Positions 23,448 to 50,292 are shown, counted from the first letter of the stretch. The stretch is DNA of 64,000 nt from Sulfolobales archaeon (GCA_038867615.1 JAWBYA010000002.1:224001-288000), one strand, 5' to 3'. Translations and numbers: made by a program. The notes: generated by a model not told the origin, from the letters alone.

Positions 23448-23544
23448 TGGCGGGCCCGCCGGGATTTGAACCCGGGACTTCCGCCCAGCAGATCTGGTCT
23501 ACGGGTTAAGAGCCCGCCGCTCTACCGGGCTGAGCTACGGGCCC
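23448..23544 (-). tRNA. tRNA-Lys(CUU) with 20-nt intron at 45/46 (23479-23498); CCA encoded
   Basis: GGGCCCGTAGCTCAGCCCGGTAGAGCGGCGGGCTCTTAACCCGTAG[ACCAGATCTGCTGGGCGGAA]GTCCCGGGTTCAAATCCCGGCGGGCCCGCCA; BHB with CCGT/GCGG helix and AG|A, AA|G bulges. Confidence 0.95.
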
Positions 23545-48315: not shown

Positions 48316-48583
48316 TACGCCGACCCAATTTCTTAAAGCACCAGTGCTTAAAACAATTGATTAACGCATCAGGACATCTGCTCCCTGTGTTGTTACCGTT
48401 TTTGATATCTGTTATATTAAAAGCTTCTAAACCCACATGGAGATATGGCCAGGCCGAGCTAGGTTAGCAAATTACAGCACCAGGATTCTAGGCTAAACCT
48501 GTAAGTCCTAGATCTTTCCTAGAAATGTGATCAAGAAAGCAGTCCCGCATGGTTTGCGACACTTATGTTTTTAGGCTATAACA

Positions 48584-48640
48584 GATCAGCCAGGGGTTCA
48601 CTCGTCACCACTCGGCTCTCGGCAAACTCTTCATCCTAAC
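48584..48640 (-). ncRNA. Candidate C/D-box sRNA
   Basis: AGGATGA(C)-AGAGTTTGCCGAGAG-CCGA(D')-GTG-GTGACGA(C')-GTGAACCCCTGG-CTGA(D); intergenic, AT-rich promoter-like sequence upstream. Confidence 0.7.
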
Positions 48641-48680
48641 TTATAATATTCCTCGAGAATAATATATCAAGGATATAGTA

Positions 48681-48929
48681 TTGAGCCTCCAGGGACTCGT
48701 TATAGGAAGCCTCCTCATATTCTTGGGATTGATCCTGGTGTTTATAGCTATAGCCATAGCTATTCCAGGATCGATGACGAAGGGCTTCGGAATAATAATC
48801 ATAGGGCCAATACCACTTATACTAAGCGATGGCATTAGCACTATCCTAATCATCTCTGCATTGTTGATAGCTGTATTAGTCATAGTCCTCTTACTATGGC
48901 TGAGAGGATATACTATGGCTAGGCAGTAA
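48681..48929 (+). CDS. DUF131-like small membrane protein
   Basis: TM helices with GFGIIIIGPIPLI motif. Confidence 0.75.
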   Translation: MSLQGLVIGSLLIFLGLILVFIAIAIAIPGSMTKGFGIIIIGPIPLILSDGISTILIISALLIAVLVIVLLLWLRGYTMARQ

Positions 48930-48979
48930 CCAGGCTCTTCTACACAGGATCCTCTACTTGCTAAAAATCGCTCTGTAGA

Positions 48980-49126
48980 CTAGGATGCTGGTGCTCCTAT
49001 CATATACAGGATCTCTAATTCGAGCTTTAGAATATCCTCTTGGCTTATAACGGTATCCCTTGCCTCAGATACTCTTCTATCCTGGGCAAGCTTTCTCTTC
49101 TTTGAACGATTCTTAAAATACCCCAC
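48980..49126 (-). CDS. Small hypothetical protein (48 aa)
   Basis: GTG start; MGYFKNRSKKRKLAQDRRV...ILKLELEILYMIGAPAS. Confidence 0.35.
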   Translation of the reverse strand: MGYFKNRSKKRKLAQDRRVSEARDTVISQEDILKLELEILYMIGAPAS

Positions 49127-49200
49127 ACCAATTTTCTTTAACCTGTACATCTGTCATCCCAAATAGATCTAGTTCCTATGAGTAATATAAAGGCTTGCAC

Positions 49201-49437
49201 TTATTCACTTCGACAACTGTCTAAAGCATTCTGGATGCATTCATACGCACTTTCTATCTTTGAGAACCTCTCTAGAAGCTGCCTCACGACATCTATACAT
49301 CTAAGCCTGTTGATAGCCATATACCTTATTATAGAGAGAAGATACGCCCTACCCTCTGATGTTAAAACCCCCCTCTTATCCAGGTAATCCCGCGTCTCAG
49401 CGATGATAGATAGATCTCTGAGTAGCTTCTCATACAA
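49201..49437 (-). CDS. Hypothetical helical protein (about 78 aa)
   Basis: TTG start chosen because the longer track ORF overlaps the tRNA half. Confidence 0.5.
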   Translation of the reverse strand: MYEKLLRDLSIIAETRDYLDKRGVLTSEGRAYLLSIIRYMAINRLRCIDVVRQLLERFSKIESAYECIQNALDSCRSE

Positions 49438-49497
49438 AACACACAGATCCCTCTCTCCCCGATCCCTGTGAAACCCTTGCCCCCAGCTAGTTAAACC

Positions 49498-49503
49498 TTT
49501 AAA
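49498..49503 (+). promoter_or_regulatory. TATA box of the tRNA-Gln 5'-half transcript
   Basis: TTTAAA ending 24 nt upstream of tRNA nucleotide 1 (49527). Confidence 0.65.
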
Positions 49504-49526
49504 TCCTGATAAAGAATTATTATTGA

Positions 49527-49564
49527 AGCCGGGTCGTCTAGCGGCCAAGGATGCGGGGCTCTGG
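49527..49564 (+). tRNA. 5' half (positions 1-37) of tRNA-Gln(CUG); candidate split tRNA
   Basis: AGCCGGG TC GTCT AGCGGCCAA GGAT G CGGGG CT CTG G, followed by trailer CCCTCCGCGCCGCCCCC; no T-arm or acceptor 3' strand downstream. Confidence 0.85.
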
Positions 49565-49580
49565 CCCTCCGCGCCGCCCC

Positions 49581-49632
49581 CTGATGAGAAGAGGGTCTTC
49601 TGATCATGTGATGTGTGCTGGAACTCCTGATC
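49581..49632 (+). ncRNA. C/D-box sRNA directly 3' of the tRNA-Gln half
   Basis: CTGATGA(C)-GAAGAGGGTCTT-CTGA(D')-TCAT-GTGATGT(C')-GTGCTGGAACTC-CTGA(D); two 12-nt guides. Confidence 0.85.
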
Positions 49633-49653
49633 CGGTTTATAGAAGATCCCTAA

Positions 49654-50292
49654 CTACCTATAACCGATCCTCTCGAGCATGCTCGATATAGCCCCCAAAG
49701 ACCTTTCAGCATATAGGCATGAGGGATCCTTATCACCGCATCCCCTCGATAGATGCTCCCTCAACACCCTCAGCTCCTCGAGAAGCGATTCCAAGTACCA
49801 CTTATTGCCAACATACCCCTCCCCCACGAGCTTCGGGCTACCCTCTGCAAAACCTTCTGGGTAGTACATGTCCCTAACTAGGTAGTAGCCGCTCACTATC
49901 ATGAGAGATCCTAGCCTTGTAGCCCCGGGATGGATCCCTCTGCTTAGTAGTGAGACAGTTTCATGATCCCTTACATATGGGATCATAACCCTCAGACCCT
50001 CACCAAAGATCCCCAGCAAATGCGGGAGGATCTCTCCTAAGGCGTTATAGAAATTCTCTGAGAGATCTGTTTCGTTAAACTCGACCCATGGTCTGTAGTT
50101 CTCCCTGCCAGTAAATACTACAAACCCTATCTCAAGACCCTTGATCCTGGATGTAACCTTATAAGCACCCCTGATCCTCCAACCCCTGCACTCAATGATC
50201 GTTGTTCCAGGGATTCTCCCAAGTTCCTGGCATATGCCTGCCTGGCCCACACGTAACCCTAGCAATATATATATCCTCGCAGGATTTAACAT
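49654..50292 (-). CDS. DUF1122-family protein
   Basis: FTGRENYRPWVE, DHET, ATRLG, RDMYYPEGFAEGSPKL. Confidence 0.8.
   Translation of the reverse strand: MLNPARIYILLGLRVGQAGICQELGRIPGTTIIECRGWRIRGAYKVTSRIKGLEIGFVVFTGRENYRPWVEFNETDLSENFYNALGEILPHLLGIFGEGLRVMIPYVRDHETVSLLSRGIHPGATRLGSLMIVSGYYLVRDMYYPEGFAEGSPKLVGEGYVGNKWYLESLLEELRVLREHLSRGCGDKDPSCLYAERSLGAISSMLERIGYR

Follow-up and report, generated by a model that had tools for sequence, protein, structure and literature searches.

A C/D-box guide RNA encoded directly behind the 5' half of a split tRNA-Gln(CUG) gene in a Sulfolobales archaeon

Did tRNAs originate as halves, or were their genes broken afterwards, and by what? Split tRNA genes lie at the heart of this debate. 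The window analyzed here is a 64,000-nt stretch of DNA from a hot-spring Sulfolobales archaeon (GCA_038867615.1, JAWBYA010000002.1:224001-288000), located on contig C2 of an assembly (G000) of 2.22 Mb in 28 contigs that is 94% complete. Within it, the 5' half of a tRNA-Gln(CUG) gene runs through a short GC-rich trailer straight into a C/D-box sRNA (Table 1). The locus raises the question of how one promoter could serve both RNAs, how the two products would be parted, what the sRNA guides and how the arrangement came about. Taken as a whole, our reading is that a single TATA-driven unit feeds tRNA trans-splicing, that the cut at the BHB motif frees an sRNA piece, that this sRNA guides modification of 23S rRNA and that the unit descends from a tRNA-sRNA tandem. 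We put the probability of this reading at roughly 65%.

Table 1. Features of the locus and of the second tRNA half (positions are those of the window unless a contig is named)
Feature	Position	Strand	Remarks
TATA box of tRNA-half promoter (TTTAAAT)	49498-49504	+	centre ~26 nt 5' of tRNA position 1 (A49527)
5' half of tRNA-Gln(CUG), positions 1-37	49527-49564	+	38 nt; sequence reading and homologues
GC-rich trailer, 5' part of the 'trans-intron'	49565-49581	+	17 nt, CCCTCCGCGCCGCCCCC; pairs with 3'-half leader G000:C5:102578-102599
C/D-box sRNA, complete dual-guide	49582-49630	+	boxes read; homologue alignment, profile search, Rfam
Box C (TGATGA)	49582-49587	+	sequence reading
D' guide	49588-49599	+	12 nt; sequence reading
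Box D' (CTGA)	49600-49603	+	sequence reading
Box C' (TGATGT)	49609-49614	+	sequence reading
D guide	49615-49626	+	12 nt; sequence reading
Box D (CTGA)	49627-49630	+	sequence reading
DUF1122 gene, convergent	49654-50292	-	stop codon 24 nt past box D; outside the unit, sets its 3' limit
3' half of tRNA-Gln with leader	G000:C5:102578-102640		AGGGGCGGCGCGCCGGGGAGAA, C38, CCCCG, 4-nt variable loop, T arm, CCCGGCU, A73, CCA

The 5' half comprises one strand of the acceptor stem, the D arm, the 5' strand of the anticodon stem and the loop CUCUGG with the anticodon CUG. The same 38 nt, at 100% identity, begin intact or intron-bearing tRNA-Gln(CUG) genes elsewhere in the order (L010, L015, L017, L013 and others). 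An A+T-rich gap of 22 nt separates the TATA box from the half, and a TATA-like element (CTTTAAAT or CTTTATAA) is found at equal distance in 5/5 members of the genus that bear the sRNA. This distance agrees with those of the archaeal tRNA and tRNA-half promoters in the available part of PMC3491384. The trailer leads into box C without a gap, box C starting 1 nt past the final trailer-leader pair. From box C to box D the sRNA measures 49 nt, with a D'-C' loop of 5 nt.

Over the ~1.2 kb 5' of the tRNA half (48316-49526) there are short ORFs only, none with a Pfam match. A 115-aa ORF on the minus strand (49201-49548) overlaps the half and is probably spurious, and C/D-box-like stretches can be made out by eye at about 49350-49425. 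Run on the window, ARAGORN and Rfam (at the gathering score) missed both the tRNA half and the sRNA and returned tRNA-Lys(CTT) only; that gene (23448-23544, minus strand) is probably intron-bearing, given its 97 nt. Many other ARAGORN tRNA calls in the genome carry introns, some of them implausibly long.

The 40 nt preceding box C belong to tRNA and trailer; they are rich in G+C and contain neither a TATA-like stretch nor a T-run. A TATA box for the sRNA would fall at ~49545-49560, within the G+C-rich sequence of the D arm and anticodon stem, which is invariant in five genomes and in intact tRNA-Gln genes. There is thus no room for a separate sRNA promoter, which argues strongly that tRNA half, trailer and sRNA are co-transcribed. 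The sequence-only reading had placed a tRNA half, a trailer and a complete C/D'/C'/D sRNA behind one promoter, and in this it was right: the anatomy can be read directly, a single promoter is recognizable and the block is nearly invariant in 5 genomes. Its coordinates, its box assignments and both of its target strings, which are the guides reverse-complemented, were also correct. A metatranscriptome contig of 218 nt (run X20, depth 14.2) spans 49529-49631, and hence half, trailer and sRNA. This contig, which constitutes the RNA coverage of the sRNA, bears the variants of a relative in the same genus and runs 115 nt beyond the sRNA, and contigs cannot show transcript ends. Since a further contig of run X20 (record 3) includes promoter-upstream sequence belonging to a different half gene, carried-over DNA or read-through may contribute. 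Matches in runs X14 and X15 show only the presence of the DNA in relatives, and run X22 gave no match.

Comparison with relatives indicates a genuine sRNA of ancient origin. An alignment of 12 homologues from 4 families shows no change in the boxes or the guide cores, and a sequence-only model built from this alignment matched in 126 of the 151 genomes of the order on which it was run. In five genomes of the genus (G000, G003, G002, G001 and G005) the segment between tRNA +1 and box D hardly varies, with both flanks diverged; in the sixth (G004, 81% complete) we found a UUG-type half only and no sRNA. UGAUGA and CUGA lie close to the 5' and 3' ends respectively, with the core G/A kept in 12/12 homologues. 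The base preceding box C is C or U, as against the purine of the RUGAUGA consensus. Internal D' and C' boxes and two guides of 12 nt make the RNA a symmetric dual guide; the layout sought was 12-nt guide spacers in about 50-60 nt overall. A fibrillarin gene is present in the genome. The best Rfam match, over exactly 49582-49630, was to sR20 (RF01140; 28.4 bits, E 2.5e-4), which has the same box layout and similar guide cores. Since 28.4 bits is below the gathering score of 44, the sRNA is not a member by Rfam's own measure; it is likely to be a distant relative of sR20 or else a case of guide convergence.

Both guides fit 23S rRNA. For a target we asked for 9 bp or more of guide complementarity in rRNA or tRNA and for Watson-Crick pairing at position 5 counted upstream from box D or D', and sites were located by a contiguous-run scan of 23S; a search allowing up to 2 mismatches over 12 nt does not return helix 69. 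The D' guide forms 9 Watson-Crick bp with GACCCUCUU in helix 69, using guide positions 3-11 from box D' and a G:C pair at position 5, with positions 1-2, adjoining box D', unpaired. The D guide forms 10 bp (2 of them G:U) with AGUUCCGGCG in helix 71, with A:U at position 5. We take the D' target to be the 3' strand of helix 69, the C predicted to be methylated lying near E. coli C1920, and the D target is presumably the part of helix 71 with a U near E. coli U1956. In the partial 23S gene of the assembly itself the D target lies 34 nt downstream of the D' target, and both sites also occur in relatives. When the guides were shuffled (1000 trials), the criterion was reached 41 times for D' and 183 times for D, and once for both within 100 nt.

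The targets that the sequence-only reading had called unassigned can now be placed in these two helices. As far as the available text of Dennis et al., 2015 (PMC4644070) goes, methylation hotspots include helices 68, 69 and 71, and the 9-bp criterion is relaxed for 'double guide' sRNAs with targets <100 nt apart, a class into which the present guide pair falls. In other families the D guide fits helix 71 less well (7-8 bp by eye in G028; none in G027, where the 23S sequence differs), so the D target is less certain than the D' target. Judged by these pairings, the guides would direct 2'-O-methylation of 23S domain IV, at the C of helix 69 and probably at the U of helix 71.

We found no guide target in 16S rRNA, none in the ARAGORN-called tRNAs (a set without any tRNA-Gln piece) and, by eye, none in the tRNA-Gln 3' half. 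Against the precursor of the 5' half the guides match only once, over 7 bp where exon and trailer meet. This pairing of the D' guide, suggested when the locus was read by sequence, is not conserved: one member of the genus has changed its trailer with no change in the guide, and sister-genus trailers are unrelated. A genome-wide search (up to 2 mismatches) gave scattered, apparently coding matches only and was uninformative. A perfect D-guide match (GAGUUCCGGCGC) in G001 and G010 turned out to span the boundary between an rRNA intron and its exon; once spliced, the sequence reads AAGUUCC..., like that of the window's own genome.

Introns interrupt the 23S gene at or beside the predicted target sites in relatives (L026 in G003, L027 in G001, L025 in G010 and L077-L079 in G012). 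They follow CUCUUA in helix 69 in G003 and G012, and GGGUAAG, before helix 71, in G001, G010 and G012. Guide binding, methylation and removal of the rRNA introns may interact at these sites.

The tRNA-Gln(CUG) gene is, on the evidence of the assembly, split: its two halves lie apart in the genome, and a TATA-like box precedes each of them. None of ARAGORN's 50 calls over the whole 2.22 Mb is a tRNA-Gln, no intact tRNA-Gln gene was found in the 94%-complete assembly and there is no 3' exon within ~1.5 kb of the CUG 5' half. When the genome was searched with the reverse complement of the trailer, one site preceded a tRNA 3' part (Table 1). A TATA-like GAATAAAA lies ~27 nt 5' of this 3' half as a promoter element of its own. 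The genome contains no other tRNA-Gln 3' half, even with 6 substitutions tolerated. A 'tRNA-Asp(gtc)' with a 134-nt intron, called by ARAGORN at G000:C5:102408-102637, is an artefact, its 3' part being the tRNA-Gln 3' half. The G+C-rich 200 nt 5' of the 3' half gave no Rfam match (E < 0.05). The CCGG that flanks the sRNA on its 3' side could pair with the leader, a possibility discarded because only G000 and G003 share it.

Two tRNA-Gln 5' halves are encoded, CUG in the window (C2) and UUG on contig C9 (3025-3062). The UUG half (L035, G000:C9:3025-3085) has a promoter-like A+T-rich upstream region, and its own trailer pairs with the leader of the single 3' half, from which it appears that the two isoacceptors share that half. 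No sRNA follows the UUG half, so the sRNA would be dispensable for trans-splicing.

The CUG trailer and the leader form a duplex of 11 bp + 2 bp. An hBHBh' motif at 37/38, drawn by hand and checked by script, consists of valid pairs throughout and has an energy of -65.0 kcal/mol. Its 5'-splice bulge is GGC (G36-G37-C; 3 nt), with the cut after G37; its central helix is 4 bp (C32-U35, CUCU, with GGAG); and its 3'-splice bulge is AAC (A-A-C38; 3 nt). Outside the motif follow 2 bp, a 2x2 internal loop and the 11-bp GC helix, and the acceptor and anticodon stems form between the two transcripts. Left unconstrained, the minimum-free-energy cofold (-74.2 kcal/mol) forms local hairpins in preference to the tRNA/BHB structure. 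It retains the acceptor stem and the 11-bp trailer-leader helix, mis-pairs the anticodon region and yields no cloverleaf for the CUG half. Mis-folding of tRNAs in minimum-free-energy predictions is an expected caveat.

The strongest evidence for a split gene is the co-variation of trailer and leader. In 10 genomes besides G000 the pairs are complementary within a genome and different between genomes. By eye, the leader fits its own trailer in G000, G003, G001, G007, G012 and G010; the longest duplexes computed for the others are 12 bp (G005), 12 bp (G002), 14 bp (G033), 11 bp (G023) and 13 bp (G021). Within the Desulfurococcales/Sulfolobales order, at least three families have a split tRNA-Gln(CUG) gene. 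Beyond the window's own family, such genes are seen in families f9 (L011, G021) and f11 (L012, G023; L016, G033), with computed duplexes of 11-14 bp; the 3' halves of G021, G023 and G033 are L088, L087 and L086, and single-contig genomes are among these. The 3' half of G021 sits directly behind another tRNA gene.

The enzymes needed for the proposed route are encoded in the assembly: two splicing-endonuclease (EndA) paralogues, RtcB and, for the sRNA, the fibrillarin mentioned above. The two endonuclease paralogues presumably form the crenarchaeal alpha/beta type. A 74-nt contig of joined tRNA-Gln(CUG) was recovered from run X20 (record 5), for which identical intact genes of other community members are a possible source.

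These elements suggest the following scheme. The promoter would drive a primary transcript of ~105 nt, made up of the 5' half, the 17-nt trailer and the dual-guide sRNA. The trailer would anneal to the leader of the 3'-half transcript, encoded on another contig, and the tRNA body would then fold, creating the BHB at 37/38. The alpha/beta splicing endonuclease would cut both strands and RtcB would join the exons to give tRNA-Gln(CUG). The same cut would release a trailer-sRNA piece, to be trimmed to the limits of the L7Ae/Nop5/fibrillarin particle, and the mature sRNA would guide 2'-O-methylation in 23S domain IV, with its D' guide at the C in the 3' strand of helix 69 and probably with its D guide at the U of helix 71. 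We infer this order of processing. Release of the sRNA by BHB cleavage had already been suggested in the sequence-only reading. The suggestion survives in part: the cut would separate G37 from the trailer-sRNA, but the 17-nt trailer would stay on the sRNA, so trimming would still be needed, and coupling of the two events is not required.

On this last point, the available part of Breuer et al., 2021 (PMC7994747) reports from Tripp et al. that archaeal C/D sRNAs mature from any transcript by virtue of their own box motifs. If maturation is independent of the flanks, coupling to splicing is plausible but not obligatory, and the main rival to our scheme becomes processing that is uncoupled from splicing: the sRNP would assemble on the nascent transcript and generic nucleases would excise the sRNA, so that each transcript would yield either a tRNA half or an sRNA. 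The diverse contexts in which the sRNA family is found in relatives (divergent, spaced, unlinked) speak for this too. It would, however, oblige 5'-to-3' trimming to degrade a tRNA half that is structured and carries a 5' triphosphate. Both products are most simply obtained by an endonucleolytic cut, for which the BHB is the sole recognizable site between them. We regard uncoupled processing as unlikely, if still the rival to be taken most seriously.

The sRNA might also play an active part at the break. Its L7Ae/Nop5/fibrillarin particle, assembled beside the trailer helix, could shield the free 3' end of the 5'-half precursor and aid or time trans-annealing at high temperature; RtcB could join leader, trailer and sRNA into a hairpin-capped or circular RNA; or a mobile sRNA in the intron loop could have helped to break the gene. 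We hold these ideas to be decidedly unlikely, and they are of interest for what would follow. If RtcB joins the leader to the trailer-sRNA, guide output would be tied stoichiometrically to the synthesis of tRNA-Gln(CUG). If a mobile sRNA helped to break the gene, the locus would be a direct example of the kind lacking from Randau's N. equitans proposal.

The history of the unit was approached through 30 sRNA loci, compared for neighbouring tRNA-Gln pieces (within ~1.5 kb). In the window's genus (g1) half, trailer and sRNA are fused at 5 loci, in 5/5 genomes with the sRNA, and this comparison shows the tight fusion to be specific to that one genus. In g3 the half and trailer are followed by ~49 nt and then by the sRNA (2 loci, L006 and L007). 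In g2 the sRNA is divergent, upstream across ~65 A+T-rich nt; three of its 4 loci lie beside a split CUG half and one beside an intact tRNA-Gln(UUG). In f5 an intact tRNA-Gln(CUG), intron-bearing or intron-less, is followed 20-45 nt on by the sRNA (4 loci), and coordinates place G017 and G038 in a similar arrangement. No tRNA-Gln piece lies within ~1.5 kb at 14 of the 30 loci. The g2 genome G011 (L019/L042) has an intact intron-less tRNA-Gln(UUG) where 3 congeners have the split CUG 5' half; replacement, repair by a processed copy or independent splitting could account for it. The remaining one of the 30, L044 (G105, labelled f10; a 541-nt contig), differs very little from its sRNA/tRNA-Gln counterpart in G008 (g2) and is probably mis-binned.

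The sequence-only reading had suggested that the unit may derive from an intron-borne sRNA whose host gene lost its cis 3' exon; in a related form of this idea, insertion of a mobile sRNA into the intron would have split the gene. The trailer start (CCCUCC...) and the leader end (...GGGGAGAA) match both ends of a 22-nt cis intron in the tRNA-Gln(CUG) gene of G034 (L009), from which the break would lie in a former 37/38 intron loop, exactly at the present sRNA site. A role for C/D sRNAs in gene splitting in N. equitans is also proposed in the accessible sections of PMC3491384. Against such an origin, the order 5' exon, sRNA, 3' exon is found at 0/30 loci, and no genome has the sRNA within a tRNA-Gln intron. 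A scan of 185,579 species (one genome each) for an anticodon arm followed by this sRNA within 35 nt gave 3 records, all of the split type, labelled 'Desulfurococcales', 'Sulfolobales' and 'Desulfurococcaceae' archaea. There are, moreover, split CUG genes with no such sRNA behind the trailer, both in g2, where it is divergent, and in f9 and f11: the sRNA model finds none in G021, the copy in G023 is far from both tRNA-Gln loci, and G033 has its copy and the 5' half on separate contigs. In f5 the sRNA is outside the gene, downstream of the 3' exon. An origin from an intron is in our judgment decidedly unlikely.

We favor a retained tandem. Splitting of the gene probably came before the fusion and is probably the more widespread of the two. 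The spaced, divergent and downstream positions of the sRNA in relatives, together with its failure to appear inside any tRNA-Gln intron, suggest that the fusion is probably a surviving tRNA-sRNA tandem and not a former intron. The sRNA would be an old neighbour of tRNA-Gln(CUG) that was kept with the promoter-bearing 5' half when the gene split at the 37/38 intron. The spacer would then have been lost in the window's genus, leaving the sRNA dependent on the tRNA-half promoter. The split, spaced and fused states were ordered here by comparison of loci. Independent promoters for this sRNA do exist elsewhere, as indicated by ATATATTA in the g3 spacer, at a promoter-like distance of ~19 nt 5' of the sRNA, and by TATAAT plus a T5 run between tRNA and sRNA at two f5 loci (L052 and L060), but a start of its own in the window, with adjacency reflecting tight gene packing only, is very improbable given the invariant G+C-rich tRNA sequence at the TATA position throughout the genus.

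Transcripts that join a tRNA to an sRNA are already known. Available parts of the literature describe dicistrons of tRNA-Val and sRNA8 in N. equitans (PMC3491384) and of tRNA-Met and sR44 in Pyrobaculum, with spacing that is fluid between species (PMC6009581), and cite others in I. hospitalis and T. tenax (PMC7994747). As in these, the sRNA of our locus lies directly 3' of tRNA sequence on the same strand and lacks a separate promoter, its 5' end would come from tRNA processing and spacing ranges from fused through spaced to separate promoters, as with Pyrobaculum sR44. The partner is different: here the sRNA follows only a 5' half and its intron-like trailer, and the discriminator and the 3' strand of the acceptor stem belong to another transcript. 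With no tRNA 3' end beside the sRNA, RNase Z cannot cut, which sets the locus apart from the RNase Z type. Its sole defined cleavage site is the BHB, which forms only once the second transcript anneals.

C/D sRNAs are also known from introns, in euryarchaeal pre-tRNA-Trp and, as a candidate, in the tRNA-Met intron of N. equitans (PMC3491384, PMC3218864 and PMC7994747, in the parts available). The tRNA-Trp intron resembles our locus in that the intervening sequence lies at 37/38 and the splicing endonuclease parts the sRNA from the 5' exon. Here, however, the intron would be in trans, and the BHB cut would define the 5' side only, the 3' side being a free transcript end. Moreover, the tRNA-Trp intron methylates its own tRNA, whereas our guides fit 23S rRNA. 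Having neither a cis 3' exon nor a supported target in tRNA-Gln, its host tRNA, the locus does not belong to the tRNA-Trp type.

With the split tRNAs of N. equitans, Caldivirga maquilingensis and Desulfurococcales, as described in the available sections of PMC3218864 and PMC4390854, the locus shares separate promoters, a GC-rich trailer and leader and a BHB at 37/38. The tRNA-Glu of N. equitans likewise has two isoacceptor 5' halves for one 3' half, as CUG and UUG do here. The split tRNAs listed in those sections do not include tRNA-Gln(CUG), the N. equitans entry being tRNA-Gln(UUG), split at 32/33, and none of the halves listed there is described with an sRNA. According to the same excerpts, Chan et al. 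sought a C/D sRNA in the long tRNA-Asp spacer of Aeropyrum and found none. Our own partial search of the literature, which covered articles without their supplements, found no description of an sRNA on a tRNA-half transcript or of a split tRNA-Gln(CUG). Whereas tRNA-sRNA dicistrons and intron-borne sRNAs are established, a guide RNA on the transcript of a tRNA half appears to be a new variation on them, and this is the first case that we have found.

The locus thus adds to the known split tRNAs an unlisted one, tRNA-Gln(CUG), whose 3' half is common to a UUG 5' half. It also places a guide RNA on a tRNA-half transcript whose sole defined processing site requires two RNAs to meet, and so offers a clean test case for whether maturation of a C/D sRNA can be made dependent on tRNA splicing. 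Its relatives provide a graded series in which events can be ordered: intact gene with downstream sRNA, split and spaced, split and fused, and divergent. The value of the locus lies mainly in this series, as a record of the co-evolution of split tRNA genes and guide RNAs, and in the test of splicing-dependent maturation.
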